The position numbers were made by a program, and so were the translations under genes. The notes beneath the pieces are model-generated. The model was given only the letters and a program-made list of their open reading frames with translations. It did no database searches and was not told where the DNA came from. Positions 12,253-64,000 of a stretch of 64,000 nt of DNA are shown here, one piece after another. How positions within the stretch are numbered: the first letter of the stretch is position 1; each line of letters begins with the position of its first letter. This stretch comes from Alphaproteobacteria bacterium (GTDB lineage Bacteria; Pseudomonadota; Alphaproteobacteria; RF32; CAG-239): assembly GCA_017467515.1 (NCBI GenBank), contig JAFUSU010000004.1, positions 621-64,620 on the forward strand, read 5' to 3'.

Positions 12253-12332
12253 AAAATCTTTAACGCTAAATTAGTTATTCTCTCACTATACTAACACAAT
12301 AATATAAATTTACAAGTATAGGGGTAAAGTCA

Positions 12333-47625: not shown

Positions 47626-47728
47626 CTTATTGTAATTGGTAATAAGTCGGTGTCCGTGCTTGATTATTTATTTTTCCAAATGTATGATAAAAAAAATTAT
47701 GCCAAAAAACGTTTTAGGAACTTTAAAA

Positions 47729-48352
47729 ATGAGTATAAAATACAAACTATGCATTGTTTTAATGGGAGCGTTGGTGTCAGGTTGTATGGGAACTTTGACG
47801 CAGCCTGTGAATTTACCGGATGATCCGGATTGTGTTGAAACCGTTCCTGCCGGACCGAGTGACGGAAAGTCTGAGTTTGTAAGTTATACAGATGTTGCAG
47901 CCGATTATCGTCAATACGGAGAAAGAACACCGCGAGATCAAAATGTTGTCAGAACGGGTGCCGGAAGCAATATGTCCGCATCTATTCCGCCGTCTGTTGA
48001 TGAAGAGGTTGAAGAGTATGATGTGACAGTTGCTGAGGAAGATGAAGACGGTGACGGCACTGGCCCCCAAAATCAAGAAGATCCTGTAGAAGATTGGTTG
48101 GCAGAAGAAGGGCAAAATTTAAAAGATCTTTTGAGTGAATGGAGCGATAGGGCCGGCTGGAGATTGGTTTGGAAGACAAATCGTAATTATCCTTTGACGG
48201 CAGGGGCGATGTTTAGAGGTCGGTTTGCAGATGCAAGTGCCGCTTTAATCAGAACATTTGCGCGAGCAAAGCCTGCTCCTATTGCTACCTTTTATAAGGG
48301 AAATAGAGTTTTAGTTGTTGAAACAATGGAGGACGAAAATGCTTTTGAATAA
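47729..48352 (+). CDS. PilL-like lipoprotein (TcpQ-like C-terminal domain)
   Basis: Lipobox LVSGC. C-terminal W-rich block WSDRAGWRLVWKTNRNYPLTAGAMFRGRFADASAALIRTF...NRVLVV resembling the TcpQ/PilL domain. Position corresponds to pilL in R64/PAPI-1 pilL-N-O-P-Q-R-S. Confidence 0.45.
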   Translation: MSIKYKLCIVLMGALVSGCMGTLTQPVNLPDDPDCVETVPAGPSDGKSEFVSYTDVAADYRQYGERTPRDQNVVRTGAGSNMSASIPPSVDEEVEEYDVTVAEEDEDGDGTGPQNQEDPVEDWLAEEGQNLKDLLSEWSDRAGWRLVWKTNRNYPLTAGAMFRGRFADASAALIRTFARAKPAPIATFYKGNRVLVVETMEDENAFE

Positions 48353-49958
48353 ATTGACAAGTAATGTCTTTGTTGCGACTTTAGGCATAATGTTGATGTC
48401 CTCTTGTTCCATCTCAACGGAAATGGACGCGACAATGGATCGTGATATAGATAAAACCACGGCTTTGAGTGAACGAGCAAAAGTTCCGGCAAAACCGATT
48501 GATGAAGATGTTGTTCGTGTTAAAAATGATATTTGGTTGGGTGATGTCAGTGAAATAGAGTATGACGGACAGCCCTTGCCTGCTAATTTTGAAACGAAGG
48601 ACGGTGTAACTTTAATCAGTAATCGTCCGATTACGCTTTATGAAATCGGTGATATGATTAGTAAAATTACCTCTTTGAGAGTAAGTTTTGCCGGTAATAT
48701 GGATCAAGAAGCTCGTAAGACGGCGACAAGCAATCGTCCTAATCCGAAGAATGTAAATGTTGATTGGACAGAGCCGAATAAAATGCTTGTTTCCTATAGA
48801 GGTCCTTTGAGTGGGTTGCTTGATGAAATTGGTTCTCGTTTCGGTATTTGGTGGAAATATGATAAAAAAGAAATCCATTTTTATAAAAATATTACAAGAA
48901 CGTTTGTTTTGTACAGTTTGCCGAGTGAGCCGAGTATGAATGTGACTGTTGGCGGTTCATCTAACGGTAGCGGTGCAAGCAACTCCTTAACAATGACCAA
49001 TGCGGCAAAACTTGAATTTTGGAAGAACATTGAGGAATCAATTAAGTCAATGATTGATTCAAAGGCAAAAATCAGTATGGACCCTTCAAATGGTACGGTT
49101 GCCGTGACAGCTGATCCGAATGATATTAAAAAGGTTGCTAAATTTATCAATGAACAAAACGCAAGATTGTCGCGTCAAGTTGCTATCAGCGTAAAAGTTT
49201 TGCAGGTTAATGTTGATGATAGTGACAAATTTAATCTCGACTTAGCTGCGGCCTTTAAGGATCCGGCAGGAGGAAGTTTCGGTATAGCGGGAGTTGCAGG
49301 TTCTGCTGATGTAACGGATAATTTAACTTTGAATTTGGTTCCGAAGAATGTTAGTATTGACGCGGCTATTCAGGCATTGTCTAAACAAACAACGACGACG
49401 CTTATTACAAGCGGTACTGTAACAACCTTAAACAATAAGCCGGCTCCGATTCAGGTTGTAAAGAAACAGAACTATATCTCTGAAATAACAAAAACAAATA
49501 GTGGCGGTGATTCTAATTACTATGATATTTCTACGGAAACGGAAGAAATAGAAACCGGCTTTACGATGAATGTCTTGCCTCGTATTTTGGAACACGGTCG
49601 TGTTATGATGATGTTTAATTTAACGTTATCTGATTTGTTGTCATTGGATAAAGTCAATCTTGATGATGGTTCATCTTCTGAGGAAGGAGGATCAGGCGGT
49701 CAATATATTCAAAATCCGGTTGTTGAATCCAGAGGTTTCTCTCAGGAAGTTGTTATGACATCGGGTCAATCTCTGGTCTTGACCGGTTACGAGCGTGTTG
49801 AAAATACAACGGAAAAGACAGGTGTCGGTTCGGCAACAAATTCTTTGCTTGGCGGTGGTGCTGACGCTGCAAAAGTAAGAAGTATGTTGGTGATTATTTT
49901 AACGCCGGTCGTTTTGGAATCTCCGTTAAATCCGGAATCGAGAATGCATAACATCTAG
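48339..49958 (+). CDS. PilN-like outer-membrane lipoprotein secretin (type IVb pilus type)
   Basis: Lipobox LMSSC. C-terminal secretin-like region (VVMTSGQSLVLTGYE ... TNSLLGGGADAAKVRSMLVIILTPVVLE ~ secretin GGL...PLLG...LLIFITP). About 540 aa like R64 PilN. 14-nt overlap with the upstream gene. Confidence 0.7.
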   Translation: MLLNKLTSNVFVATLGIMLMSSCSISTEMDATMDRDIDKTTALSERAKVPAKPIDEDVVRVKNDIWLGDVSEIEYDGQPLPANFETKDGVTLISNRPITLYEIGDMISKITSLRVSFAGNMDQEARKTATSNRPNPKNVNVDWTEPNKMLVSYRGPLSGLLDEIGSRFGIWWKYDKKEIHFYKNITRTFVLYSLPSEPSMNVTVGGSSNGSGASNSLTMTNAAKLEFWKNIEESIKSMIDSKAKISMDPSNGTVAVTADPNDIKKVAKFINEQNARLSRQVAISVKVLQVNVDDSDKFNLDLAAAFKDPAGGSFGIAGVAGSADVTDNLTLNLVPKNVSIDAAIQALSKQTTTTLITSGTVTTLNNKPAPIQVVKKQNYISEITKTNSGGDSNYYDISTETEEIETGFTMNVLPRILEHGRVMMMFNLTLSDLLSLDKVNLDDGSSSEEGGSGGQYIQNPVVESRGFSQEVVMTSGQSLVLTGYERVENTTEKTGVGSATNSLLGGGADAAKVRSMLVIILTPVVLESPLNPESRMHNI

Positions 49959-49978
49959 CAGTAAGAAAGGATAGAAAA

Positions 49979-51292
49979 TTGCTGGAGAATGCCAAATTAT
50001 ATGATAAGGATTATGATTCTAATGCAACCCGTTCATGGGGAACATCGACGGTTATTGCCGGTGTAACTTACTCTACGGGTTTGTTTTGGCAACCGTTGCA
50101 AAATAAAGACGATCCTTATACGGAAATAGAAGAATCTTCCGAGAGCGTTCAGGAAGGGGCTGACCTTTTTGTTATAAAACCTGGAAAAACGGTTCAATTT
50201 GGTATTTGCGCCAGTGGCGACGGCTATAAAAAAGGAACACAGTCTTTAGCTGTAACTGTTTCAACGGCGTTGTCCGAAAAATCATCTTTTGTCGCTGTGT
50301 TTAAGGTTGATAACGGATGGTGGTATTGTTGTGTTCGTAATGACATCATCTTGTCAGATGGGGATATGTTGTTTCTGAAAGAGGATGATGCCAAAGAACA
50401 GTTTATGTCTATGATGACGGTTCCTGATTGGGGACGCCGTATTGCACCCGCCGATTGGAATATTCCGGATACGGAAGACTTGCAATTAGAAGGAATTTTA
50501 TCAAGCGGCGTTAAAGCAAAATTACAAAAAATAAAAGCACTTAGAGGACCGAAGTTATACGCGATAATAGCTCTGTCTGCAGTTGTTAGTTTTTGGATTT
50601 TATCGTCTTTTGTGACAGATGTTTTGTTGGCCCCTAAAAGAGCCCCGATTGTCATTGCTCCGGTGAAGCCGAAAATTATGAAACCGGTAAAAAAAGCTCC
50701 GGAAATTAAGCCGTGGGAAAAAATAAAGGATCCGGAGCAAATACTGTCCTATTGCTATAGAGATGTAATGCTTTTTGTTAAAATTATGCCACCGGGATGG
50801 GAAATCGGAGGAGTGAATTGCGGAGAGAACGGAGCAACGGCTTCTTGGTCCAGAAATATTGGACGTATTTCTTGGATAGATAAAGCTTTAAATGAGTCTA
50901 AAATGTCTTTTTCCGCACGTTCTATTTCTGCAGATGGAAATACGCTTATTGCCAGTACCTATTATAAGCCGGTTCTTATAAAATCACCTCCGGTTTATAC
51001 GGAAATAGAACTCAAAAATATTGTAAATGACTTATTTCAGTCTTTGAGCCAGCCGATTTCGTTAACGGATACAACGGTTGTTGTGGAGCCTCCAAAGAAA
51101 ACAAGTCGTTTTCAAGAGAGTGAAGAGGAAGCGAAAGAATATAGAACGGTTAGTTTTACTTTTTCGGCGCCTCAAAATCCGCTGGTTTGGCAAGATATAT
51201 TAACAAAATTTTCAGGACTTGTAATGTATACTATAAAGTATGATACGAGAACAAGTATGTGGACTTATGAGGGAGCAATCTATGTTATATAA
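49979..51292 (+). CDS. PilO-position pilus-assembly protein (hypothetical; TTG start)
   Basis: 437 aa with one central TM helix (LYAIIALSAVVSFWILSSFV). Call is based on position and size (R64 PilO 431 aa) only. Confidence 0.35.
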   Translation: MLENAKLYDKDYDSNATRSWGTSTVIAGVTYSTGLFWQPLQNKDDPYTEIEESSESVQEGADLFVIKPGKTVQFGICASGDGYKKGTQSLAVTVSTALSEKSSFVAVFKVDNGWWYCCVRNDIILSDGDMLFLKEDDAKEQFMSMMTVPDWGRRIAPADWNIPDTEDLQLEGILSSGVKAKLQKIKALRGPKLYAIIALSAVVSFWILSSFVTDVLLAPKRAPIVIAPVKPKIMKPVKKAPEIKPWEKIKDPEQILSYCYRDVMLFVKIMPPGWEIGGVNCGENGATASWSRNIGRISWIDKALNESKMSFSARSISADGNTLIASTYYKPVLIKSPPVYTEIELKNIVNDLFQSLSQPISLTDTTVVVEPPKKTSRFQESEEEAKEYRTVSFTFSAPQNPLVWQDILTKFSGLVMYTIKYDTRTSMWTYEGAIYVI

Positions 51293-52811
51293 GACAAGCA
51301 ATATATTGAAAAATTCTTTTCTAACGATAGGATTAGCATATTTGCTAACCTCAACATGTTATGCGCAAAGCCCTTTAGATTTGGCCGATGATTCTATGCC
51401 GAAATTGTCTCTTGAGGAGGAAAACAGAGGACAAGAAGAGAATCAAACTCAAAATAATCAGGAAAGCAATACGGCTTCAGAACAAAATAGTGAAATTGCT
51501 CCCGTAGAAAACGGAGAAGGACCTTTATTCCCTGAAAATGGATCGGATAACACGCTGTCGCTTCAGAATCAACAGGAAGCACCTTTCTTTCCTGAAAATG
51601 CTTCGGATGACGCTTTTCCCCTTTCTGACCAACAAGAAAAGCCTTTGGGTTTAGATGAAAACGCTCTGGGCGGAGAAACAGGATCTCCTTTGGATGTGTC
51701 AAATACAGAGCTGAAAAATGAAAATCAGGAGATTTCCCCCAAAGAAGAACAGGATGCCGTATTAAATGCTTACAATAATTTTGTAGAGGCAACAGACAGA
51801 GAGGCCTTTGAAAATCCGCAGCAGAACAAAGGTTCGACCTTTGGTGACAAAATTATGGATCAGGTTAAAGAAGATTTGTTCTCGCAAATGGCAGATATTG
51901 AAAAGCAAACAAGTTTGTTGACTTTGGAATTAAAACGCGAAAAAATTAAAAATGAAATCGCGGCAATGCATGCAGAACGGCAAAAAGCAATAGAAGAAGA
52001 AAAAGAAAAACAACTTGAAAAAGAACGCCGTCAAAAAGAATGGGAAAGAGAGCAAGAAAGAAAACTTCTTGAGGAAAAACAAAAACTGAAAGAAACTGAA
52101 ATCAAGTTTGAAAAATTGCGTCAAGAACGTGTCTTGAAAGCATATAAAGAGAGTATGCTGAAAACAAATCAGGAATGGGTTGAATATAATGCGCGTCTTT
52201 ATAATCAATTAGTTAGAGAAGAAGAAGAACAAAATAATCTGCTTACAGTTCAAAAAGGGTATTTTAAGGATTTATCGGAAGGAATATCCGGCTTGGTTAC
52301 CGCGGCACAGCAAGCTAAAGAAAAATATAATCGGGAGATTGCAAACTTGCAAACTCAGGTTGCAATTTTGAAATCTAAGCTGGAAGCAGAAAAGAATGCA
52401 TTTGAAGAAAGCAAAAAAAGCGGTCCTAATCCTTTTGCTTTGGTAGAAGATGATCCTAATGCTTCAAAACAAAAAATTTCTGAAGAGTATGCCATTATGG
52501 AAATCAGTGGTAAAGGTGAAAAATTGGTAGCAAAGCTGATAAACAAAAATGGCGGAACTTTTATGGTTAAACCCGGAACAATTTTGAATACGGGGCATGT
52601 TATTGAAGAAATCACTCAAACGTACATTGTAACAGACAAAGGCGGTATAAAGGATTACTTATACTTCTCTGCCGGCGGTATTCTGGATAAAGAGCCGACC
52701 AAAACGATTAACGCTGCGCCAAAAGCAAGTGTTGCATCGCAAGAAAATGAGGGCGCAGAAATAGAAGCCACACCGGTACCGAGCTTAAGAGAAGGTATGT
52801 TTGTAGAGTAG
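51282..52811 (+). CDS. PilP-position protein: signal peptide, Glu/Gln-rich repeats, long E/R/K-rich helix and a PilP/GspC-HR-like C-terminal beta domain
   Basis: Signal peptide ending TSTCYAQS. 20-aa tandem repeat (PLFPENGSDNTLSLQNQQEA / PFFPENASDDAFPLSDQQEK). ER/K-rich helix KAIEEEKEKQLEKERRQKEWEREQERKLLEEKQKLKETE. C-terminal EISGKGEKLVAKLINKNGGTFMVKPGTILNTGHVIEEI. Confidence 0.4.
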   Translation: MLYKTSNILKNSFLTIGLAYLLTSTCYAQSPLDLADDSMPKLSLEEENRGQEENQTQNNQESNTASEQNSEIAPVENGEGPLFPENGSDNTLSLQNQQEAPFFPENASDDAFPLSDQQEKPLGLDENALGGETGSPLDVSNTELKNENQEISPKEEQDAVLNAYNNFVEATDREAFENPQQNKGSTFGDKIMDQVKEDLFSQMADIEKQTSLLTLELKREKIKNEIAAMHAERQKAIEEEKEKQLEKERRQKEWEREQERKLLEEKQKLKETEIKFEKLRQERVLKAYKESMLKTNQEWVEYNARLYNQLVREEEEQNNLLTVQKGYFKDLSEGISGLVTAAQQAKEKYNREIANLQTQVAILKSKLEAEKNAFEESKKSGPNPFALVEDDPNASKQKISEEYAIMEISGKGEKLVAKLINKNGGTFMVKPGTILNTGHVIEEITQTYIVTDKGGIKDYLYFSAGGILDKEPTKTINAAPKASVASQENEGAEIEATPVPSLREGMFVE

Positions 52812-52815
52812 GAAT

Positions 52816-54492
52816 ATGGCAGAGGAAGATGAAAAAAAAGAAATAGAGGCAGAAAATGCCGCTTCAGAACAACAGAAGTCGGCAGAGGCTTCGTCTTCCT
52901 CTGATACAGATATAGAAAAAACAAGCCTTATTCAATCACTTTTTACGGCAGGAAATAAACTTCTTACCTTACCGAATTCCCAAACAATTTCTGTCGGTGA
53001 TGATACGCGCCGACTATTAGCGTTATTTTCAGACGGACGTTTTTTAGTTGTCGAAACACACAAATTCGACGGCCGTGTGATGAGCTTTCAGGTTCTGGCT
53101 AAACGAAAAGGTTTGCGCTTCGGAAAGCCTATTTTTATCAGCCAAAATGAACTGAATGCAATATATGCATATGGTGAGCGTTCAGCGCCTGTTGAGTTGT
53201 CAGAAAGAGAAGTTGAAGAAAACCAACTTCAAATGCAACGTGACTTTGTTAATGTTGTTGCCAGAGCAGCCTCCGTAAAGGTATCGGATATTCACGTCGT
53301 TGTTGCAGATAGTACGCAAATTATGTTTAGAGTTAACGGTATGATGCAAACCGTTATGGAATACGATGCACAATGGGGAGAATCTTTTGTTCGTGCGGCA
53401 TTTGCTTCTGCCGATATTTCAGACTCTAACTATACGCAAAACGAATTTCAGGGCGCACAAAAATTAGGTTCTACACCTTTAAGAGGTTCAAACGGTAAAT
53501 TGATGTTGCCGCACAACGTGTTGGCAATTCGTTTACAATTTAATCCGATAGCTTTTGGGTCGCAATATTTGGTTATGCGTTTGTTGTATGCCGATGATAA
53601 TCCGGATGGAAGTGGCGATTTGTCTTCACTGGGATTTGGAGAATATGAAGAAAATTTGTTCTATCGATTGCGCTCTGTTCCCACGGGATTAAGCATTATT
53701 GCCGGTCCGACAGGATCAGGTAAAAGTACGACTTTGCAACGCAATATGATCAAATTATTGCAAGAGAAAAATTATGAACTCAATCTGATTACGGTTGAAG
53801 ATCCGCCGGAGTATCCAATTCCCGGTGCTCGGCAGATGCCGGTGACCAACGCAAATAATGAAGAAGAAAAAGATGAAATGTTTACAAAGGCTCTGTCAGC
53901 CGCATTACGTTCAGACCCTGACGTTATTATGGTTGGTGAGATACGATCATTGTCTGCGGCAGAATTAACATTCAAAGGCGCCTTATCAGGACACGGCGTT
54001 TGGTCAACTTTACACGCAAACTCCGCTCCTGCAATCATTACCCGTTTGCGAGATATGGGAATACAAAAATTTATGTTGGCAGATCCGGAATTAATGAAAG
54101 GATTAATTTCTCAACGTTTATTTAGAAGATTGTGCCCGCACTGCCGTAAAAGTGTTAAGGATATTTTGGATCATCCGGCTGTAAAACGTTTGAAAATTGC
54201 TCTGGGTGATTTTGGCTTAGAGAATGCATTTGTGCGAGGTCCCGGATGCAAATATTGCGATAATCGCGGCGTTAAAGGTCGTTTATGTGTTCCTGAAATT
54301 ATATTGCCCGATGCGACGTTTTTGGAATTAATGATTGAGAGCCAAACACGTAAGGCGATTGATTATTGGACGAGCGATTTAAACGGGAGAACCTTAAAAG
54401 ATGCTGCAATCGAGCGTATGCTTAAAGGCTTGATAGATTTAGAAGAAGTAGAGCGCTGGTGTGGTTTGTTAGACCAACGACCGGTATATTAG
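52816..54492 (+). CDS. GspE/PilB-family secretion ATPase (PilQ-like)
   Basis: Walker A GPTGSGKST, Asp box/Walker B DPDVIMVGEIR, His box VWSTLHANSA and tetracysteine CPHC...CKYC. 558 aa. Confidence 0.85.
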   Translation: MAEEDEKKEIEAENAASEQQKSAEASSSSDTDIEKTSLIQSLFTAGNKLLTLPNSQTISVGDDTRRLLALFSDGRFLVVETHKFDGRVMSFQVLAKRKGLRFGKPIFISQNELNAIYAYGERSAPVELSEREVEENQLQMQRDFVNVVARAASVKVSDIHVVVADSTQIMFRVNGMMQTVMEYDAQWGESFVRAAFASADISDSNYTQNEFQGAQKLGSTPLRGSNGKLMLPHNVLAIRLQFNPIAFGSQYLVMRLLYADDNPDGSGDLSSLGFGEYEENLFYRLRSVPTGLSIIAGPTGSGKSTTLQRNMIKLLQEKNYELNLITVEDPPEYPIPGARQMPVTNANNEEEKDEMFTKALSAALRSDPDVIMVGEIRSLSAAELTFKGALSGHGVWSTLHANSAPAIITRLRDMGIQKFMLADPELMKGLISQRLFRRLCPHCRKSVKDILDHPAVKRLKIALGDFGLENAFVRGPGCKYCDNRGVKGRLCVPEIILPDATFLELMIESQTRKAIDYWTSDLNGRTLKDAAIERMLKGLIDLEEVERWCGLLDQRPVY

Positions 54493-54501
54493 GAGTAAGA
54501 A

Positions 54502-55617: not shown

Positions 55618-55618
55618 A

Positions 55619-56158: not shown

Positions 56159-56252
56159 TAGCCGAAAGATTAAGAGGAATATTAAGATATTATTCATAAA
56201 AAAAGGTGTATGCTTGATTAGATAAAAGAACGGGTACAACTGGGGAAAACAG

Positions 56253-56543
56253 ATGAGAGAGATGATTCTAAAAGCAGTTGCAAATCCTCCAAAGATACTT
56301 TGGGGGCCCTTTTTGCCGACACTGCTTAATTTAGGAATTCAATTTCCCTTTATGTTTATGTGTATGGGTATATGGAACGTAAATCCGTTAATTTTTATAG
56401 CAACAATCGGCCTTGGTCATATTTTTGTGATTTTTTTGGGAACAAAAGATCCGCATATTTCCACAATGATACAAGCTTATGGGCAAGGACGAGTTTTGAG
56501 TACAAACCTTTATAAATGTAAGGGGAATAAATTTGCGCCCTGA
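56253..56543 (+). CDS. VirB3/TrbD-family type IV secretion protein
   Basis: 96 aa with two TM segments. ILWGPFLPTLLNLGIQFP and HIFVIFLGTKDPHISTMIQAY match the VirB3 family pattern. 11-nt overlap with the following ATPase gene. Confidence 0.65.
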   Translation: MREMILKAVANPPKILWGPFLPTLLNLGIQFPFMFMCMGIWNVNPLIFIATIGLGHIFVIFLGTKDPHISTMIQAYGQGRVLSTNLYKCKGNKFAP

Positions 56544-58968
56544 TGATTTTGACTTTTTTTCCATATTTGTTCAAAGTCTGAGCAGTATGGAGGTTATTGT
56601 AGCGGTTATCGGATTCGTTGCGGCAGCCGCATTTGCCGGTGTTTGGGTTACAAAATTCGGACATTATATTTTACCTGAACCGCATGAATCGCGGGTAGCG
56701 GATTTTTTACCGTTTACAAAATTGATGGCCGACGGCATTACCATTCGGTGCTATAATGGTTCATTTGCCCGTGTTTTTAAAGTAGAAGGTGTCGATCTGA
56801 GCTTTGTGACGGAAGAAAAAAGTATGTCAATGATGGAAGCTCGCAAGCTCTGGATTGACAGTATGGGCGAATTACAGGTTACATGCCGCGTTATCACTCT
56901 GCGCGATAAATCTGAGATGGAGGAGGATAAGGGCGATTTTGGAAATCCGATATTGGCGCAAGTTTCTGAAACATGGCATAATACCCTAGACAGAATATAT
57001 AGCAATACACACTATATTATTTTATCCGTAGCGGATCGCGCAGATGCTCTGAAAGATTTAAATTATACTTCACAGTCTTTAATGGCAACGTTAAATGATT
57101 ACGGGGTAAAACCGATGTATGAAACGGAGGACAGTCCGGCCTCTGAAAGTCCTTTTTCCGTATTCAGCCGTATATGTAGCCCGATTAGCAAACCTGAGCC
57201 GAAAGTCAGAGGAAGTGAAGGGTATGAGCTGAACGAAATGTTGACGGCAGATCATATCCATTTTACGGAAGAACAAGGGGTTATTAAGTTCTTTTCGGGA
57301 ACAAAAGAAAAATATGCAATTGTTATGGGGATCAGAACACCCGGCGATTATATGGATGAAAATATGATAGCGGGGTTGCTGTCAATTAACTGCGAGTTGA
57401 CCTTGTTGCATAATATCAGTCCGATGTTTAAGCCTAAAGCCAGAGCTTTATTAATGCAACAACAAAGAATGGCAACGTCAACAAGCTTTTCTGCTGATGT
57501 CGTTGCTCAATACAGTGAAGCTTTGTCTGCAATAGAAGATAGCGATGCCGATTATCAGGCTCTGACAGAATATGCGATGGATATTATTATCCGTGGTGAC
57601 AGTATGGAGGAGGTTGATTTCGGAGAAAGTGAAGTTCAAAGAATTTGCCGATTGTTCAGTGTAACCCCTGTTCGAGAAGGGTGGGTTGCACAAGCTGCAT
57701 TCTTTAACCAGTTTCCGACATACGATATTTTCCCGAGAACTTATCGCTATTTATCGCGCGTTGTTGCTATGGCGGTATGTTTTGATAAGCCGGCAGAAGG
57801 GTTTAGTAAAAGTGACTGGGGTCCGGGGGCAATCAGTATCTTTAGAACAACAGCCGGATCCGCCTATCGATTCCAATTCCATGTTTCAAGCGAAGATGCT
57901 GCAGTGGCACACTGCTGTATTATAGGTCCGACCGGTCAAGGTAAAACAACATTACTGACGTTTTTAGCCGGTCAAGCAATGCGTCACAAAGATTTAAAAG
58001 TATTCTTCTTTGATCGTCACCGTGGTGCTGAAATATTTACCAGAGCAGTTCAAGGGGCTTATATCGGTTTTGATGGTGATGAGAAGAATGTTTCATTGAA
58101 TCCGTTTGCCTGCGAAAATAATCCGAATAACAGAGCATTTCTTCGCCGTTGGTTGAAAGCCATTACAATGGTAGATGATGCATTATCGGAAAGAGAAATC
58201 GGACGAGCGGTTACAACTTCTTTTGATTACTTGAAGCCGGAAGAAAGAATTTTAAAAAATCTGTATAAGAGCTGTTTTTCACCAACGGGTAATATGCGTC
58301 GCGAACTCTATCGTTGGATTAATCCGGAACAATACGGTAATATCTTCAATTCTGAAACAGATAGCTTGGATTTACGTTCAAAACGTTTTACCGCATTTGA
58401 TTTCACGCATATTTTTGAAGATGAAACTTTAGCTCCGGCCGTTATCAGCTATATTATGCATCGTATTCAGTCCGAAGTAGGTGATGCAGGTGTTCCGTCA
58501 TTAATTATGATTGATGAAACGGCGCCGATGTTAAAACATCCGATGTTCCGTGATTACTTTATGATCGGTCTGCAAGAGGGTCGTAAAAAACGCCAAGCTT
58601 ATTTATGTGCATTCCAACAGCCTAATATTATTGATAAACTCGGTGTAGGTGAAGTTATTCGCGGTCAATGTCAGACGATTATTTTCTTCCGTAATCCGCA
58701 AGCAATGCCGGAGGATTATGCAAACTGGAATCTGACACAACGAGAAATAGACTTTATTTTCGGTAAGACATATCGAGATTTCCCGTATGCCATCTTATTA
58801 TCGCGTCCGGCAACGGGTGAGTCTGTTATTTTAGACGTTGATTTAAGCGGATTAGGACCGTATTTACGATTGTACAATTCAAGTCGCAAAAATGTATTAT
58901 TGGTTCAGGATTTAATAAAGGAGTATGGAGAAGCAAACTTTGTTACAAAATATTTAAATATTGCGTGA
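56533..58968 (+). CDS. VirB4/TrbE/CagE-family type IV secretion ATPase
   Basis: 811 aa. N-terminal TM helix. Walker A CIIGPTGQGKTT near residue 465. Walker B LIMIDETAP near 660. Size and motif spacing typical of VirB4. TTG start translationally coupled to the VirB3-like gene. Confidence 0.85.
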   Translation: MRPDDFDFFSIFVQSLSSMEVIVAVIGFVAAAAFAGVWVTKFGHYILPEPHESRVADFLPFTKLMADGITIRCYNGSFARVFKVEGVDLSFVTEEKSMSMMEARKLWIDSMGELQVTCRVITLRDKSEMEEDKGDFGNPILAQVSETWHNTLDRIYSNTHYIILSVADRADALKDLNYTSQSLMATLNDYGVKPMYETEDSPASESPFSVFSRICSPISKPEPKVRGSEGYELNEMLTADHIHFTEEQGVIKFFSGTKEKYAIVMGIRTPGDYMDENMIAGLLSINCELTLLHNISPMFKPKARALLMQQQRMATSTSFSADVVAQYSEALSAIEDSDADYQALTEYAMDIIIRGDSMEEVDFGESEVQRICRLFSVTPVREGWVAQAAFFNQFPTYDIFPRTYRYLSRVVAMAVCFDKPAEGFSKSDWGPGAISIFRTTAGSAYRFQFHVSSEDAAVAHCCIIGPTGQGKTTLLTFLAGQAMRHKDLKVFFFDRHRGAEIFTRAVQGAYIGFDGDEKNVSLNPFACENNPNNRAFLRRWLKAITMVDDALSEREIGRAVTTSFDYLKPEERILKNLYKSCFSPTGNMRRELYRWINPEQYGNIFNSETDSLDLRSKRFTAFDFTHIFEDETLAPAVISYIMHRIQSEVGDAGVPSLIMIDETAPMLKHPMFRDYFMIGLQEGRKKRQAYLCAFQQPNIIDKLGVGEVIRGQCQTIIFFRNPQAMPEDYANWNLTQREIDFIFGKTYRDFPYAILLSRPATGESVILDVDLSGLGPYLRLYNSSRKNVLLVQDLIKEYGEANFVTKYLNIA

Positions 58969-59049
58969 TTTTACTGAAAAGTGTTTATCAACGGCAGAAT
59001 TTTTGTTAGAATAAAGTCTGGGAAGCTTCTTTGTGTTAAGGAGGGTATA

Positions 59050-61743
59050 ATGCATAAACGGATATTTGTTAAGGTGACGATTCTTAGCGCAATCGGTGTT
59101 TTAGGCTTTATCTCTCCGAGTTCGGCAACGTGGCCGACACTTGATATGTCTGCTATCCAGCCGACAATACAAAATGTACAACAAGAGGTACAATCAGTTA
59201 AGCAACAAATTGAATCCTGTAAAGAGTTACAAAAAATTAAAACAGCTATCGGGGATGCCAAAGAAGCGGCTAGCAAATTTAATGAAGATGTTGTTCAAAA
59301 GGCTAAAAAAGAAGCAGAAAAGATAAAAAAAGAAGCAGAGAAAGTAAAAAAGATTCAGGACGATATCAAAAAAGCCAAAGAAGAGTATGAAAAGAAAAAG
59401 AAAGAATTTGCAGAATATAAGCAAAAACTGGAAGAAACAAAAGCCGCTGTTGACAGTAAAATCAAAGAAGCTCAACAAATGGCATCAGATGCCCAATCTG
59501 CAGTAGAAGGAGCAAAGGGCTTAGCATCGCAGGCAATAGCAGATGCCCAATCTCAAGTCGGTTCTGTGACATCAGATATCAGTGGGACTGTAGGAGCTGT
59601 ACAAAACAGAGTTAGCAATATCTCTGCATCGCATACAGAATCAACGGTTGATCAAAGAAGTAATGTCGGAGGAAATGTTGCTTTACCTCAAAGCAGAAGG
59701 GGAGAAATTCCATCCGGTACCGCTAATGACTTTTCCCGCACGTCTTTTAATTTGAGTGGAAACGGAGAGGCTGATGTCGGTCAAGTCGTAAGCCCTATTC
59801 AAAATAGAACAGGAGGCACAGCTCCTGCCGGCGTAAGTATGAGAGAAAGAGCAGAGGAATATGCGATGCCTTTATCTGTCCGAGAGAGCTTTGTACAAGA
59901 GGATATCCTTGCAGAACCGGCAGGTATTACTCAAGAAAGTAAAGAAGATAAAATTGTTAACCCAGAGATAGAGGCAGAGGTTGAAGATATTAAAAGAATA
60001 GCCTCAGAACAAGGGACAGACGTAGCGACAAGGCTGTTAAAAACATCTATAGATGAAGCTGTCAGAAATAAGGATATTGCCAGACTTGATGCACTCTCTA
60101 AAATAGAAACAAGTGACATTATTAATTCAAACAGCAAAAGATATGAAGAAACATCGGTAAAAGCAGAGGGAAGAAGAGCCTTCAGTAGTCCGATAGAAGA
60201 AATGAGTGTTGAAAAATTGAAAAAACAAGCGCTGGAAGCTAAAGAAAATCTTCGTCCGACAGTAGAGGAAAAGGTAACAACACCGGAAACAAAGCCGATT
60301 TCAGAATTTAAGGTGCCAGCAAAGACAATAGAAAATGTTGAAAAAGCAATAATACCTGCTCGTGAGCAAACAATAACAAATGCTCCGGTTGTGAGCAAAG
60401 TGCAAGCTGTTCGACCTCAAAATGTTGAGGTTCCTTCGCCCCTAAAAGCTCCGATTCAGGGTTTGCAGGAAAGAAAACCTTTTACGATGCCGACATCGGA
60501 CTTGGAGAAAAATTCATTTTTAATTGAGGAAAAAAAAACAGCACCAAATCGTAGCAAATTAAGTTTCGCCGATACATTGCGTTTTGCAAGTATAACCGGA
60601 GGAGAATGTACGGATTATAATAATGTTATTCAAACCAAAGACGGAACGGTTATTATTATTCCTGAACTTTTGGCAAAAGAATGTTGCCTGAAAGCTGAAA
60701 ATTTAACGGATTTAAATTTAATTCGCGATTGCGCAAAGAAGCTGGTAATAGAATCAAAGGGATTATTGGAAATTGACGAAGCAAGTTTGGAAAATTGCGG
60801 AGGAGAAGGAATTTATGATGCTTCCTCGGAACAATGCCTCACGCGTACAGATACTATGTTGGGACAGGAAAAATTAGGCGTTTATAATGAGATTGTTGCA
60901 CAGCAAGGTGCAAATGCGGCAGCAGAGGGGATAATAGACAAAGCAAAAGCCAGCAACTATGTTAAAGATTTTTTTGAACCTTATAAAGAAAAAATAGCTA
61001 AAATTCAAAGTAAGGGGGGAGGCGATACGTCAGGATCATCAAACAAAGATGCGACCTCTCTTTTAACTTTGACAAATCAACAAATGATGTATCTGTTGAA
61101 TATGATCAGAAGAAATTACACCACGACACTGGCGGATATATCGTTACGAGGTCTGGGGTCTGTTACGGAAAATGCTGTATTGGAAGATGAAAAAGGGGTA
61201 AATAGCACTCAAGAGTACGGTAATACGGTTGTTCGTCAGGAAGATGCCGTGGTAGAATATCCTATTTTGCCGGAAAACATAGCAATAAAGTGCTCAATTA
61301 AAGCAAAAGAATTGGGAGAAGATGGTTTTAATCAAATTTCACAGGCAGATCCGGCAATAACATCTTTGGCAGACTGTTACCGTCAGGTTGTTAAAGATAT
61401 AAATGTCACCAATGAAACAGAAATTGATGAGGCTCAAAAATTTATGCAATTGACGCAGTATCAGGAAAATTTAAATACCTTGGAAAAGGCACTTTATCAA
61501 AAGGTAAAAAGTTCAAAGTACGAGGAAACGCTTGATAATGCGGAAGAAACAAATAACAATGCAACAACTACCAGAAAAGGCTATTCGGCTCTGTTTCAAA
61601 CAGAAACGGAATTGGCAAGAATTGCAGATGACATGGTAAACGTTTATGCCAGTAAATTAACTTACACAGCCATTAAAGCTTTATCAAAATTAGAAACGCC
61701 GACAACGCCTTCAATTCAGAAAACCGGTGGAACGGAGGGATAG
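59050..61743 (+). CDS. Secreted coiled-coil protein, paralog A (about 897 aa) with a Cys-rich C-terminal domain
   Basis: Signal peptide MHKRIFVKVTILSAIGVLGFISPSSA from the ATG at 59050. Lys/Glu/Ala/Gln-rich helical N-terminus. Conserved block EIEAEVEDIKRIASEQGTDVATRLLKTSIDEAVRNKDIARLDALSKIE shared with paralog B. Cys-rich region CTDYNN...CCLKAEN...CGGEG...C. Confidence 0.6.
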   Translation: MHKRIFVKVTILSAIGVLGFISPSSATWPTLDMSAIQPTIQNVQQEVQSVKQQIESCKELQKIKTAIGDAKEAASKFNEDVVQKAKKEAEKIKKEAEKVKKIQDDIKKAKEEYEKKKKEFAEYKQKLEETKAAVDSKIKEAQQMASDAQSAVEGAKGLASQAIADAQSQVGSVTSDISGTVGAVQNRVSNISASHTESTVDQRSNVGGNVALPQSRRGEIPSGTANDFSRTSFNLSGNGEADVGQVVSPIQNRTGGTAPAGVSMRERAEEYAMPLSVRESFVQEDILAEPAGITQESKEDKIVNPEIEAEVEDIKRIASEQGTDVATRLLKTSIDEAVRNKDIARLDALSKIETSDIINSNSKRYEETSVKAEGRRAFSSPIEEMSVEKLKKQALEAKENLRPTVEEKVTTPETKPISEFKVPAKTIENVEKAIIPAREQTITNAPVVSKVQAVRPQNVEVPSPLKAPIQGLQERKPFTMPTSDLEKNSFLIEEKKTAPNRSKLSFADTLRFASITGGECTDYNNVIQTKDGTVIIIPELLAKECCLKAENLTDLNLIRDCAKKLVIESKGLLEIDEASLENCGGEGIYDASSEQCLTRTDTMLGQEKLGVYNEIVAQQGANAAAEGIIDKAKASNYVKDFFEPYKEKIAKIQSKGGGDTSGSSNKDATSLLTLTNQQMMYLLNMIRRNYTTTLADISLRGLGSVTENAVLEDEKGVNSTQEYGNTVVRQEDAVVEYPILPENIAIKCSIKAKELGEDGFNQISQADPAITSLADCYRQVVKDINVTNETEIDEAQKFMQLTQYQENLNTLEKALYQKVKSSKYEETLDNAEETNNNATTTRKGYSALFQTETELARIADDMVNVYASKLTYTAIKALSKLETPTTPSIQKTGGTEG

Positions 61744-61747
61744 CAAG

Positions 61748-63505
61748 ATGAGCAAAAAATTTGTTATGGTTATCCTTTCTTTGATGGTTGCTTTTTCTCT
61801 ACCTGCCCAAGCGGATATTGAATTTGTGCAAAAAGTTATGGGTAAAGCAGAAGGTGTTCAAAAAAAAGCAACGGCCGCTCAAGAAAAAATAATGGCCTAT
61901 AAAAAGAAAATGGAAGATTATGCCAAAAAGGCTAAAGGCTATATAAGTGATGCACAATCAATGGCTAATGAAGTAAAAGGAGCCATAAATGACGTGCAAT
62001 CAATGGCTAATGCCGCATTGAAAGGAGATTTTTCTTCTTTGAGTGTTATTCCGTCAGACTTAAAAACGGCTATGGCAGATGTCAAAAAAATGAAAGATGA
62101 TGTTAAAAACAAAGTTAATGACGCTAAACAGATGGCTGCCGATGCTAAAGCTGCGACCGAAGGGGCAAAGGCTTTGGCAAAACAGACGGTTGAAGATGCA
62201 AAATCTCAAGTCAGTAGTGTTAAAGATGCTACCCAAGGGGCCGTAAATTCTGTTCAAAATACAACAAAGGAAGTAACCGGATCATCTTTAAATAATGGTT
62301 TGCCAAAAACAGAGCGCACCGGTTCTTCCCCAATCTCAACGGTATCTGTTCACAATAACATAGCATCAGGACCAATACAATCTGTTACGAATACGCCGGT
62401 TAAAGCAACAACGAGAGAAAATATTTTTCCGGTAACAAATAACGGTATTAATAACATATCGACGGCGACTGTCAGAACAGATGTTGCAGTTCCAAGAATA
62501 ATCGGCCAAGAACAGCAAAGTCAAGTTGTTGCAGAAGGTATTTCCGGTATATTAAGCCCTGCTTCCGAAAAAATTGCGGAAGAAAAAATACCTCTTGATA
62601 CGGAAATTAAAGCAGAAATAGATGAAATAAAGGCAACAGCCAAAGAACAAGGTGTTGAAGATGCCAGAAAACTACTGGAGATTTCAATCGATGAAGCAAT
62701 CAAAAATGAAGATACTGCGAGATTGGATGCCTTATCAAAAATAGAAAAAGAAGATATCCTCAATGCCGGCAATAACGAGAATAAAACAGGTGGAAGAAGA
62801 GCCTTTACCAATTCGGCGGAAAACATCGCAATAGAGGGGCTGATAACAGAAGCAAAAGATGCAAAAGAAAAATTGCGTTCGGTTGCTCCGGAAAGCACAT
62901 TGAAAGTGCCTCAAAAAATAGAGCCTGAAATTATCGGAATAACAGAAAAAGTGTCAACACAAGAGCGTTCCCTTTCCGGTAAAAAAGAAATTGCACCTGT
63001 TAAGACGATGCCAACACAGGAGATCAAAGGTCCTTTGCAAAAAAATTCTTTTCTGTTTGAAAAAGATAAGCCTCTGCGGGTGAAAACATCTTATAGCGAA
63101 ACGTTGAAATTTGCCGATGAAGCAAGTGATGTTCCTGATTCGGAAGATACTTCTGCGGCTGTAACGGCAACGCTTCTTCCTGTTGAGAGTTCCGGAGATT
63201 CTGTTGAACAAGCAAAAACGGCTAAAGAAAAAATTCAGGAATATATGCGTGATGAGTTGACAGCCCTCTATGCAACAGGTTTTACCGTTCGCACCAATAT
63301 GTTGAAAGAAGCTGATAACAGAGATATCGATATGGAAGCTGAAGATCAGATGTGGCAGGAAACAATTCTCAAAGCAGAAGAATGTATTACCAGAATTGCA
63401 AAATTTCACGTTATTGAAGCAATGCTGTCGTCTTATAAATATTCCGAATCTTTGCAGGATTTGGTTGTAAAACAAACAGAAGAAGCTGAAAGCGAAGGTG
63501 AGTAA
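61748..63505 (+). CDS. Secreted coiled-coil protein, paralog B (about 585 aa)
   Basis: Signal peptide MSKKFVMVILSLMVAFSLPAQA. Same N-terminal helical repeat style and the conserved DTEIKAEIDEIKATAKEQGVEDARKLLEISIDEAIKNEDTARLDALSKIE block. Confidence 0.6.
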   Translation: MSKKFVMVILSLMVAFSLPAQADIEFVQKVMGKAEGVQKKATAAQEKIMAYKKKMEDYAKKAKGYISDAQSMANEVKGAINDVQSMANAALKGDFSSLSVIPSDLKTAMADVKKMKDDVKNKVNDAKQMAADAKAATEGAKALAKQTVEDAKSQVSSVKDATQGAVNSVQNTTKEVTGSSLNNGLPKTERTGSSPISTVSVHNNIASGPIQSVTNTPVKATTRENIFPVTNNGINNISTATVRTDVAVPRIIGQEQQSQVVAEGISGILSPASEKIAEEKIPLDTEIKAEIDEIKATAKEQGVEDARKLLEISIDEAIKNEDTARLDALSKIEKEDILNAGNNENKTGGRRAFTNSAENIAIEGLITEAKDAKEKLRSVAPESTLKVPQKIEPEIIGITEKVSTQERSLSGKKEIAPVKTMPTQEIKGPLQKNSFLFEKDKPLRVKTSYSETLKFADEASDVPDSEDTSAAVTATLLPVESSGDSVEQAKTAKEKIQEYMRDELTALYATGFTVRTNMLKEADNRDIDMEAEDQMWQETILKAEECITRIAKFHVIEAMLSSYKYSESLQDLVVKQTEEAESEGE

Positions 63506-64000
63506 TGAGAAAACGGATTTCTTTAACAGCTTTGATGTTTTTTAGTTTGTTCTCTTTTGTCGTTCAGGCGATGCCTAAAATAGACGCCGCTAAAATAGTG
63601 CAAAAAGTGCAGGAAGAGGTTGGAAAAGTTCAAGAGGAAGCGCAAAAAATTCAAACGCAACTTGGAAATATGAAGCAACTTCAGCAAATTCAAGGAGCGA
63701 TGGAAGAAGCAAAAAAAATGAAAGGAAAAATAGACAGCGCTAAGAAGACGGTTTCCGATGTTCAAAAAAAAGTTGGAGAAGTTCAGCAAGGTGTCGCAGA
63801 TGCACAAAAAGCGGTTGCCGATGCTCAGAGTTCTGCAACCGGAGCACTGGGCGATATACAAAACGGTCTTGGCGGAGCCGGAGCTCAACAATTGTTGGCA
63901 TTGCAAACAGAACAAGCTCAAGCACAACAAAACCTGACGAATGATTTACAAGCTCTTGATGATGAAATGACAGCACAGATTAAACCGCTTGAAGATAATC
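63505..64000 (+). CDS. Secreted coiled-coil protein, paralog C (5' partial; runs off the window)
   Basis: ATG at 63505 overlaps the TAA of paralog B (TAATG). Signal peptide MRKRISLTALMFFSLFSFVVQA. Open frame to position 64000 with the same VQ..V..AQK helical repeats. Confidence 0.55.
   Translation, partial: MRKRISLTALMFFSLFSFVVQAMPKIDAAKIVQKVQEEVGKVQEEAQKIQTQLGNMKQLQQIQGAMEEAKKMKGKIDSAKKTVSDVQKKVGEVQQGVADAQKAVADAQSSATGALGDIQNGLGGAGAQQLLALQTEQAQAQQNLTNDLQALDDEMTAQIKPLEDN

Follow-up and report, generated by a model that had tools for sequence, protein, structure and literature searches.

A type IVb pilus operon adjoining a VirB-type secretion locus on the chromosome of a gut alphaproteobacterial lineage

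Described systems and the present locus

Type IVb pili are encoded together with type IV secretion systems (T4SSs) on R64 and other IncI plasmids, TP114, pYR4 and PAPI-1 (PMC9045228, PMC5297154, PMC6232867). In TP114, R64 and PAPI-1 the pilus serves a conjugative T4SS (PMC9045228, PMC5297154). The pilus of R64 and TP114 helps to establish contact for transfer, in the gut as well (PMC9045228), and that of PAPI-1 recognises recipient cells for T4SS-mediated transfer (PMC5297154).

We analysed 64 kb of DNA (the window) from an uncultured gut alphaproteobacterium, whose lineage carries NCBI labels that include Candidatus Scatocola. All of the open reading frames described in the original prediction were present at the coordinates given there, on the + strand. 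They had been read as one chimeric operon that matched no recognised MPF class and might encode a previously undescribed pilus/secretion hybrid. However, the elements above already provide examples of a type IVb pilus paired with a T4SS, and the locus therefore varies a known theme and is not a new MPF class. What is new is that the partner is a VirB-type system and that the pair is chromosomal and conserved over a gut lineage. We consider it probable that a type IVb pilus and a VirB-type T4SS are encoded here as separate, adjoining machines, that the pilus (pil) operon has been inverted, and that the pilus is a contact module for a domesticated T4SS.

R64, TP114 and PAPI-1 are the closest precedents. 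[quoted passage not shown] In contrast to R64 and TP114, where the partner is a Dot/Icm-like MPF_I system, the partner here is VirB-type (MPF_T-like). The locus is also chromosomal and has no pilT, prepilin peptidase gene pilU, pilV with shufflon, relaxase or coupling protein; its PilN is just 28-29% identical to IncI-plasmid PilN (97% of the length aligned), and the class III signal motif is missing from its pilin-like protein. The pil genes of the PAPI-1/ICEclc family (pilL2-N2-O2-P2-Q2-R2-S2) have the same order, also with no pilM between pilL and pilN. PAPI-1 differs in being a mobile island, which carries an integrase, a relaxase and an MPF_G (GI-type) T4SS. The window locus is fixed in the chromosome, its T4SS is VirB-type, and no integrase or relaxase gene lies nearby.

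The T4SS genes resemble MPF_T loci on plasmids of Microvirga (pMVF16-3), Erythrobacter aureus (YH-07) and Sphingosinicella. VirB3, the lipoprotein at the VirB7 position, VirB8 and VirB9 are homologous, the order B3-B4-...-B7-B8-B9-B10-B11 is common to both, and the plasmids also encode a non-membrane coiled-coil protein between the VirB5 and VirB7 positions. The plasmids have a single VirB2, a recognisable VirB5 (PF07996), one VirB8 and a normal-sized VirB10, and carry VirD4 and a MobA/MobL relaxase but no pil operon. In contrast, the gut lineage has VirB2 paralogs, a duplicated VirB8, a giant VirB10 with beta-flower repeats and an array of coiled-coil proteins, and has no VirD4 or relaxase.

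Compared by gene content, the locus resembles the host-interaction T4SSs rvh, Trw and Cag, which are chromosomal, vertically inherited and conjugation-derived. VirB8 is duplicated in rvh as it is here, and Trw likewise has amplified components, in its case genes for pilus components (PMC2653234). rvh differs in the stretch from VirB4 to VirB8: it has five polytopic VirB6 paralogs there, where the present locus encodes secreted proteins free of transmembrane (TM) segments. Cag includes a giant repeat-bearing VirB10, CagY. To our knowledge, Trw lacks a coupling protein, and none of the three systems has a type IVb pilus operon as its partner.

The pilus operon

The pilus genes are as follows:

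46078..47625, + strand: 515-aa membrane-anchored protein that leads the pil operon, family unassigned (no match in Pfam and NCBIfam searches)
47699..48352, + strand: PilL-like lipoprotein with a TcpQ domain (PF10671, 60.8 bits; lipobox LVSGC)
48339..49958 (alternative start 48315), + strand: PilN-family type IVb pilus secretin, ~540-aa lipoprotein (Pfam Secretin PF00263, 52 bits; lipobox LMSSC)
49979..51292, + strand: PilO, 437 aa, one TM segment at residues 195-213 (PAP_PilO PF06864, 68.5 bits, full length)
51240..52811, + strand: PilP-like protein, 523 aa, at the pilP position
52816..54492, + strand: PilQ, GspE/PilB-type assembly ATPase (T2SSE PF00437, 230 bits; Walker A GPTGSGKS; CxxC...CxxC, with CxxC at 440 and 478)
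54502..55617, + strand: PilR, GspF-type inner-membrane platform protein (T2SSF PF00482, 79.5 bits, two repeats; four TM segments)
55619..56158 (alternative start 55643), + strand: PilS-like protein with a type IVb pilin fold (AlphaFold and Foldseek) and a non-canonical N-terminus

We found that the proposed R64/PAPI-1-like pilL-N-O-P-Q-R-S order was borne out by HMM and fold matches. The calls of a TcpQ-like lipoprotein, a lipoprotein secretin, a single-TM protein, a GspE ATPase with a tetracysteine motif and a GspF-like platform protein all held. The secretin also matched NCBIfam TIGR02520 (PilN type IVB secretin) with 267.9 bits, slightly below the cutoff of 287.65. pilL could start at 47636 or 47699; we adopted 47699 from the gene call of scaffold locus L001. 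The gene for the 515-aa protein lies directly 5' of pilL in every relative, irrespective of the orientation of the pil operon. Together with PilL, PilN, PilO, the PilP-like protein, PilQ, PilR and the pilin-fold protein, it would make up an assembly module for an R64/PAPI-1-type type IVb pilus.

Two of the original assignments need qualification. The PilP assignment is weaker than the other pil family calls: likeness is confined to the C-terminus (residues 365-461), where TIGR03021 scored 30.4 bits, below its curated cutoff of 34.65. The pilin-like protein had no match in HMM searches. Its AlphaFold model (pLDDT 88) matches type IVb pilins best, with S. Typhi PilS first in Foldseek (3fhu, E 1.4e-5), followed by TcpA and CofA. 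The reported Cys pair (Cys119-Cys167) is conserved, and distant homologs carry PF08805/PF05307. The canonical class III signal motif, however, is absent, as the protein has neither Gly(-1) nor Glu(+5).

In the window and the following 9.5 kb we found no VirB2 gene and no gene for a canonical pilin, so that both filaments are without a recognised major subunit in this strain. The slot that holds virB2 in relatives is occupied in the window by the pilin-fold gene. As had been noted, prepilin peptidase, VirD4 and relaxase homologs are absent; this holds for the window and for every sampled locus of the lineage.

The virB genes and the secretion core past the window end

The T4SS genes and the element upstream of virB3 are as follows:

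56193..56214, + strand: conserved promoter-like element upstream of virB3, TTCATAAAAAAAGG-TG-TATGCT (from an alignment of co-directional loci)
56253..56543, + strand: VirB3, 96 aa, two TM segments
56533..58968, + strand: VirB4 ATPase (TIGR00929, 368 bits; PF03135; Walker A)
59050..61743, + strand: p897, secreted coiled-coil protein of 897 aa, paralog 1
61766..63505, + strand: p579, secreted coiled-coil protein of 579 aa, paralog 2
63505..64000, + strand: p458, secreted coiled-coil protein, 5' part only (entire gene in L001 and L004)

The coupling of virB3 to virB4 was upheld; the genes overlap by 11 nt. VirB3 had no HMM match; hhalign paired it with the PGAP-annotated VirB3 of Microvirga plasmid pMVF16-3 (97.5% probability, E 7e-12), and it is 59-86% identical among 50+ species.

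At least three paralogous secreted coiled-coil proteins had been proposed. p897 and p579 are clear paralogs (34% identity over ~390 aa, E 8e-37), and all three proteins have a signal peptide and otherwise no TM segments. The similarity of p458 (458 aa) to the other two is weak and lies in the N-terminal coiled coil. Searches with HMM profiles gave no family match for p897 or p579. In the nearest relatives, core proteins are 84-91% identical, in contrast to 30-46% for the coiled-coil proteins; p897 is only 30-33% identical in relatives with a 91% identical VirB4. Members of the p458 family are present in most relatives, and in two of these loci (L007 and L048) the homolog has a C-terminal VirB2-like domain.

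The caution that the window end cuts the cluster proved right. The window is 100% identical to L001, and the same scaffold runs past base 64000, where all T4SS genes after the third coiled-coil gene lie, into two virB8 genes with that of a VirB7-like lipoprotein between them, then genes for VirB9 and a giant VirB10-like protein. In L004, from a 99.8%-identical strain, VirB4 is followed by four secreted proteins, VirB8, a 62-aa VirB7-like lipoprotein, VirB8, VirB9/CagX and a 1397-aa VirB10-like protein. The 62-aa lipoprotein has homologs among the lipoproteins at the VirB7 position of the closest plasmids (E 3e-13), and the 1397-aa protein carries at its N-terminus a TM anchor like that of VirB10. 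It was in relatives, and not in the window's own scaffold, that we observed the TrbI/VirB10 domain and VirB11. The whole stretch from virB4 to virB11 yielded no polytopic protein resembling VirB6. The complete VirB-type (P-type, MPF_T-like) T4SS would comprise, in order, VirB3, VirB4, four fast-evolving secreted coiled-coil proteins, VirB8, the VirB7-like lipoprotein, VirB8, VirB9, a giant repeat-bearing VirB10 and VirB11.

Arrangement of the two operons and alternative readings

VirB4 is 63-92% identical over 59 species-level genomes, all of them gut or rumen alphaproteobacterial MAGs. We compared the orientation of pil and virB3 at the 59 loci, 48 of which were assessable and 11 not. The run of pil into virB, presented in the original prediction as one continuous operon, is not a conserved order: the two are co-directional in 5/48 species, and this head-to-tail order was seen only in the window's subclade (5 species). 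In 36/48 they are divergent, with TrbC/VirB2 genes (PF04956) between them, and in 7/48 no pil operon lies closer than 10 kb to virB3. Head-to-head operons, with VirB2 pilin genes in between, are the majority arrangement in the lineage.

Two genes upstream of the pil operon served as synteny markers:

44265..45371, - strand: M20 peptidase gene, outside both machines (Pfam Peptidase_M20, 80.7 bits)
45461..45973, + strand: SH3-domain protein gene (Pfam SH3_4, 66.5 bits; counterpart in the relative L070 at 13821-14327)

In the window this pair lies beside the pil operon's 5' end, and in L070 beside its 3' (pilin) end, which indicates an inversion; the L070 flank is too short to show a virB locus directly. 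We suggest that the pil operon was inverted in the window's subclade, so that its last gene came to abut virB3, and that this would give the semblance of a single chimeric operon. Elements corresponding to the one upstream of virB3 (TTGCAT-N17-TAGAAT/TATCAT) lie 5' of virB3 in divergent-type loci. virB3 keeps its own conserved promoter-like element, a candidate promoter, in both layouts. The pilS-virB3 gap (94 bp, 56159-56252) contains no terminator-like hairpin, and read-through from pilS into virB3 may therefore occur.

The systems might be functionally unrelated and be neighbours by history alone, which we regard as unlikely. The seven species without a nearby pil operon indicate that linkage is not obligatory, and orientation flips without loss of either operon. 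However, pil adjoins virB in 41/48 assessable species, down to 66% VirB4 identity, and the divergent operons mostly start a few hundred bp apart (348 bp in L009), which would suit shared regulation.

An integrated conjugative element, or active transfer apparatus, with its relaxase and coupling protein elsewhere and a pilus that stabilises mating pairs as in R64 and PAPI-1, seems quite improbable. The nearest VirB4s in a plasmid collection (Microvirga, Erythrobacter and Sphingosinicella; 36-38% identity, 93-95% coverage) do sit in complete conjugative MPF_T loci that encode VirD4 and a MobA/MobL relaxase and lack pil genes. PilN-type pil modules typically belong to conjugative elements (2474/2924 plasmid matches were predicted conjugative), and a Thalassospira plasmid has a pil order identical to that of the window. 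Against this, no relaxase, VirD4 or integrase was found up to 46 kb upstream or ~20 kb downstream in any sampled locus. The locus is chromosomal, among housekeeping genes near dnaA; the window contains dnaA, dnaX, dnaK and genes for a Lon-like protease, ABC transporters and amylases. Synteny over dozens of species, with sequence divergence that tracks species divergence, fits vertical inheritance and not a mobile element.

On the reading that we favour, because neither a relaxase nor a coupling protein is linked, and because surface-exposed parts are amplified and fast-evolving, the T4SS looks like a domesticated conjugation apparatus, which we infer to be used for adhesion or protein delivery and not for DNA transfer. 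Comparable cases may be Trw of Bartonella, rvh of Rickettsia and Cag of H. pylori. By analogy with R64, TP114 and PAPI-1, pilus and T4SS could work as a contact module, in which the pilus would bind the bacterium to a target cell, on which the T4SS would then act.

A competence system that resembles H. pylori ComB, in which the type IV pilus would capture DNA for uptake, is very unlikely. The lack of a linked coupling protein or relaxase would suit it, and the VirB10 domain scored slightly higher against ComB10 (114.9 bits) than against VirB10 (97.5 bits); both scores, however, are far under the curated cutoffs. Moreover, relatives have VirB11, which ComB, as far as we know, lacks, the big array of fast-evolving secreted proteins has no ComB counterpart, and no retraction ATPase is present at the locus.

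We give almost no credence to a single hybrid machine in which the secretin, GspE ATPase and GspF platform are physically joined to VirB3/VirB4 and replace a VirB7/9/10 outer-membrane core: the terminator-free junction, the lack of VirB2 and of a canonical pilin at the locus in this subclade, and the pilin-fold gene in the virB2 slot would suit it, but it is contradicted by the two VirB8, VirB7-like, VirB9 and VirB10-like proteins downstream on the same scaffold and by the confirmed VirB10 and VirB11 of relatives. Also against it are the head-to-tail layout, which occurs in only 5/48 species and is explained by inversion, and the separate promoter-like element of virB3.

Genes of the pilus module and the VirB system

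We found that two complete or near-complete machines, a type IVb pilus and a VirB-type type IV secretion system (T4SS), are kept as neighbours across the lineage. In the window, positions 46078-64000 are a continuous series of ORFs on the + strand. Apart from a weaker PilP call, the gene identities in the original prediction were correct, as judged by HMM searches for most genes, a fold model for the pilin-like protein and hhalign for VirB3.

Genes of the pil and virB operons in the window
47699-48352, +, PilL/TcpQ lipoprotein (PF10671, 60.8 bits)
48339-49958, +, PilN-family type IVb secretin, a lipoprotein with lipobox LMSSC (PF00263, 52 bits; cutoff 27.5)
49979-51292, +, PilO (PAP_PilO; PF06864, 68.5 bits, full length)
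51240-52811, +, PilP-position protein, 523 aa (TIGR03021, 30.4 bits; cutoff 34.65)
52816-54492, +, GspE-type assembly ATPase (PF00437, 230 bits; Walker A; tetracysteine of two CxxC pairs)
54502-55617, +, GspF-type platform protein (PF00482, 79.5 bits)
55619-56158, +, pilin-like protein (no Pfam or NCBIfam match; AlphaFold model and structure search)
56253-56543, +, VirB3, 96 aa (11-nt overlap with virB4; hhalign to annotated plasmid VirB3)
56533-58968, +, VirB4 ATPase, 811 aa (TIGR00929, 368 bits; PF03135, 51.5 bits, cutoff 21; Walker A)

The PilN secretin also matched TIGR02520 (267.9 bits, slightly below the cutoff of 287.65) and was 28-29% identical to IncI-plasmid PilN across 97%. The 523-aa protein had been called PilP/GspC-HR-like. 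Its gene position fits PilP, but the TIGR03021 match is weak, under the cutoff and confined to the C-terminal 100 residues. Prepilin peptidase PilU, a PilV minor pilin or shufflon, and a PilT transglycosylase were not found in the cluster. The pilin-like gene and virB3 have no ORF between them, and the window contains no candidate for a multi-TM peptidase.

The pilin-like protein is predicted to have a type IVb pilin fold. Its AlphaFold model (pLDDT 88, from an alignment of 21 homologs) had type IVb pilins exclusively as best PDB matches (3fhu, 8uhf, 9iuf and 3s0t), with S. Typhi PilS first (3fhu, E 1.4e-5), followed by TcpA and CofA. The model thus supports the pilin-like call. However, that call needs one correction: neither the window protein nor any of its 20 homologs carries the class III signal peptide motif of prepilins (Gly at -1, Glu at +5).

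The 96-aa protein had no match in Pfam, NCBIfam or a PDB-sequence profile search. Its identity was settled solely by hhalign, in which the profile of its homologs matched the PGAP-annotated VirB3 of Microvirga plasmid pMVF16-3 with a probability of 97.5%. The 811-aa protein is a divergent VirB4, since its TIGR00929 score is below the cutoff of 643. The 11-nt overlap of the two genes bears out the predicted coupling of virB3 to virB4.

The cluster had been proposed to lack a VirB7/9/10-type outer-membrane core and to represent a new hybrid MPF class. We found the core genes downstream, just beyond the window end, and the proposed class is unsupported. The window belongs to a metagenome scaffold of 130 kb (an exact-protein look-up gave a locus, L001, that is 100% identical over 17,468 bases), and the locus of a 99.8%-identical strain, L004, extends 9.5 kb beyond base 64000. 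After VirB4, L004 encodes proteins of 897, 579, 458 and 1433 aa, then VirB8, a 62-aa lipoprotein, a second VirB8, VirB9/CagX and a 1397-aa protein.

Core genes past the window end
L004, two genes, VirB8, 251 and 247 aa (PF04335, 54.9 and 77 bits)
L004, between the VirB8 genes, VirB7-like lipoprotein, 62 aa (homologous to VirB7-position lipoproteins of the closest plasmids, E 3e-13)
L004 19249-20850, VirB9/CagX, 533 aa (PF03524, 45.3 bits; 35% identity to plasmid VirB9)
L004 20847-21740, approximately window 72600 onward, VirB10-like protein, 1397 aa (N-terminal TM anchor and beta-flower repeats)

For the strain of the window itself, the VirB10 candidate is readable at its N-terminus only, and the evidence for the TrbI domain and for VirB11 comes from two relatives, L066 and L068. 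A search with the N-terminal 298 aa to extend the scaffold returned fragments of other assemblies only. Both relatives have the same gene order through VirB9 as L004. At the C-terminus of their large repeat protein is a TrbI/VirB10 domain (119 bits in L068; NCBIfam VirB10 match in L066), and VirB11 comes next (TIGR02788, 141.9 bits in L066). The original statement that no VirB8, VirB9, VirB10 or VirB11 is visible is therefore true of the window, but VirB8, VirB9 and the VirB10-like protein are on L004, and VirB11 is found in the relatives. For the stretch from virB4 to virB11, the absence of VirB6 was upheld: PF04610 had no match, and none of the proteins encoded there in L004, L066 or L068 has more than one TM segment. 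A VirB6 gene may lie elsewhere in the genome.

Two of these core proteins are large. VirB9/CagX of L004 is long, with a weak C-terminal match to the peptidoglycan-binding SPOR domain (18.6 bits, under the cutoff of 21). The giant VirB10 of the lineage has an N-terminal TM anchor and many 5-fold beta-flower/RHS-like repeats ahead of its TrbI domain, and in the relatives 3-4 separate ORFs, together ~2700-3000 aa, cover this region (L066 10001-19071; L068 10001-18153).

Each of the four large proteins after VirB4 has a signal peptide and lacks any TM segment besides it. At least three secreted paralogs had been predicted. The first two (897 and 579 aa) are clearly paralogous (34% identity, E 8e-37), but the 458-aa third, whose gene runs past the window end, shows only weak similarity to them. 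Pfam and NCBIfam gave coiled-coil noise only (SMC, Rootletin and similar), with no detectable family. Comparison by hhalign of the array family profiles with the VirB5- and VirB6-position proteins of the closest plasmids gave nothing significant, the best match being the N-terminus of the 897-aa protein against Erythrobacter VirB5 (33% probability). The Erythrobacter VirB5-position protein matches the VirB5 model PF07996, whereas the array proteins of the gut lineage do not. VirB6 was ruled out among the large array proteins, which have no TM segments past the signal peptide and no TrbL domain. In the closest relatives, core proteins are 84-91% identical and the secreted coiled-coil proteins 30-46% identical.

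Gene order across the lineage

We scanned one genome per species and found 59 loci with a VirB4 63-92% identical to that of the window, all from uncultured gut or rumen alphaproteobacterial MAGs, including Candidatus Scatocola. Two of the MAGs carrying such a locus (L031 and L046; 80% and 63% identity) are labelled Lactobacillaceae or Lactobacillales, which is probably a binning or labelling error. Window proteins were mapped onto the 59 loci, 48 of which had sufficient upstream sequence. The pil operon was co-directional with virB3 and abutted it in only five of the 48, the five closest relatives (VirB4 89-92% identical). In 36/48 loci it was on the opposite strand and transcribed away from virB3, and in the other seven there was no pil operon within 10 kb.

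These divergent loci have two or three TrbC/VirB2 genes (PF04956) between the two operons, often together with a gene for a large coiled-coil protein that has a VirB2-like hairpin embedded in it. VirB2 paralogs, 2-3 per locus, lie ahead of virB3 in most relatives. Searches for VirB2 with a lineage-specific HMM, tblastn and phmmer gave no match in the window or the 9.5 kb past it. VirB2 domains occur in unusual settings in several loci: as 2-3 tandem paralogs, within a 1013-aa coiled-coil protein as an embedded TM hairpin, and at the C-terminus of a protein of the 458-aa family (L009 5609-9530; L007 15487-17166; L048 16169-17773).

The gene orders are most simply explained by an inversion of the pil operon within the window's subclade, because the same M20 peptidase and SH3-domain genes flank opposite ends of the operon in the window and in a more distant relative, L070. 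In L070, four canonical pilins with a G|RSMVE motif lie in tandem after the ortholog of the pilin-like gene, and next come the SH3-domain gene and the M20 peptidase gene; in the window, the M20 and SH3 genes are upstream of the first pil gene. This comparison covers the pil side only, as the flank of the L070 contig is too short to reach any virB locus, and DNA identity places L070 in a species different from all sampled VirB loci. The four L070 genes (10716-13753) encode type IVb pilins with 73-85% mutual identity and look like a pilin variation array. Canonical pilin genes were not found in the window's 64 kb or the next 9.5 kb by tblastn or phmmer.

A promoter-like element is conserved before virB3 in both layouts: TTGCAT-N17-TAGAAT or TATCAT in the divergent loci, and a related element with TG-TATGCT at 56207-56214 in the window clade. 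Judging from these motifs, virB3 seems to be the first gene of a separate transcription unit. There is no terminator-like hairpin in the 94-bp gap between the pilin-like gene and virB3, so read-through from pil into virB is possible. Continuity of the pil and virB genes, which had been taken as a feature of the system, is not supported as such by the co-directional minority of loci and the conserved element before virB3.

Chromosomal setting and related systems

The window is chromosomal, not a plasmid or island, and probably lies near the origin. Besides the genes listed below, it holds a Lon-like protease, ABC-transporter genes and two amylases.

Replication and chaperone genes in the window
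56-1501, -, dnaA
17603-19324, +, dnaX
25557-27464, -, dnaK

Cumulative GC skew climbs steadily across the window. From these genes and the skew trend, the chromosomal replication origin probably lies some 45 kb away from the pil/virB cluster. An ICE or plasmid origin of the window was rejected on this housekeeping context, and no integrase or relaxase was found around the locus. In L068, VirB11 is followed by a coiled-coil protein without a family match. Just upstream of the M20/SH3/pil region are two tandem alpha-amylase-family paralogs (40985-42541 and 42651-44225), and a 1164-aa ORF at 20279-23773 (-) has no Pfam match at E <= 1e-5 and no TM segments.

The closest VirB4s in the plasmid collection (36-38% identity) are from Microvirga, Erythrobacter and Sphingosinicella plasmids; the next is from Candidatus Paracaedimonas. 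In contrast to the window, the closest plasmid loci are complete conjugative MPF_T systems with a MobA/MobL relaxase, VirB2-B11 and VirD4, without pil genes. VirD4 and MobA of the Microvirga and Erythrobacter plasmids had no tblastn match in the window or any lineage locus, nor did prepilin peptidase, consistent with the original report that VirD4, relaxase and prepilin peptidase are lacking. A classic polytopic VirB6 is expected at the position after VirB5. In the Microvirga and Erythrobacter loci, a 428-453-aa coiled-coil protein without membrane segments follows VirB5 (L072 22351-25218; L073 22415-24655). The whole T4SS subfamily, including the closest plasmids, may be atypical.

The pilus module shares PilN, PilL/TcpQ, PilO, the GspE-type ATPase, the GspF-type platform and a pilin of predicted type IVb fold with the R64/PAPI-1-type module. 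That module sits on a conjugative plasmid or ICE, whereas the one in the window is in a chromosomal housekeeping context. A Thalassospira plasmid has the same pil gene order as the window, beside an IncI-like T4SS. In layout only, the VirB genes (B3-B4-[4 large proteins]-B8-B7-B8-B9-B10-B11) resemble the rvh system of Rickettsiales (PMC2653234): both have VirB3-VirB4 followed by large proteins, a duplicated VirB8 next to VirB7, and VirB9-B10-B11. However, the rvh paralog array consists of polytopic VirB6/TrbL-domain proteins, and the window array has neither a TrbL domain nor extra TM segments. The locus is a variant of a known pairing of type IVb pilus and T4SS that is chromosomal, VirB-type and conserved in one lineage of uncultured gut Alphaproteobacteria. 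Literature searches on the RF32 lineage with T4SS gave nothing relevant, and we found no paper describing the locus. It adds a case of a type IVb pilus retained with a VirB-type system outside a mobile element, and no new class of secretion machine.

Possible function of the two machines

In TP114, R64 and PAPI-1, the type IVb pilus locates the partner cell and keeps hold of it for the T4SS (PMC9045228, PMC5297154). By analogy, the pilus and T4SS described here might form a contact module. The T4SS looks like a domesticated conjugation apparatus that could serve adhesion or protein delivery, because the relaxase and coupling protein are unlinked, the exposed parts are amplified and VirB8 is duplicated. 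The amplified exposed parts would be the VirB2 paralogs, the tandem pilins, the coiled-coil array and the giant repeat-bearing VirB10. T4SS parts are duplicated or amplified in rvh and Trw (PMC2653234), which would be comparable systems.

Bacteria of the lineage are uncultured and occur widely in gut metagenomes from humans, chickens and ruminants. Dozens of their species retain these two contact machines, an adhesive pilus paired with a secretion system, on the chromosome. The conservation of the pair, its fast-evolving exposed parts and the lack of linked DNA-transfer genes suggest that the lineage makes its living in direct contact with other cells, be they host cells, protists or bacteria. 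The locus is a concrete, testable lead on the ecology of these bacteria.

The data at hand favour ordinary rearrangement over a functional merger of the two machines. In the window's subclade, the locus has neither the four canonical type IVb pilin genes nor the 2-3 VirB2 genes, and a single non-canonical pilin-fold gene occupies the usual place of virB2, directly before virB3. It is very improbable that, along with the inversion, the locus lost both arrays of filament subunits and that the machines, if the subunits are absent genome-wide, have merged functionally. We keep this small probability because no polytopic VirB6 was detected between virB4 and virB11, no VirB2 or canonical pilin in the 64 kb of the window and the next 9.5 kb, and no family for the array. 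In such a merger, one set of filaments or adhesins may serve both machines, with transcription running from pil into virB; this would be a real pilus/T4SS composite arising inside a two-machine lineage.

The neighbourhood of one relative's pilin array holds a further gene pair. A few kb from the array, L071 (10219-12336) encodes a SMODS/DncV-like nucleotidyltransferase beside a patatin-like phospholipase, resembling a CBASS-like defence pair.
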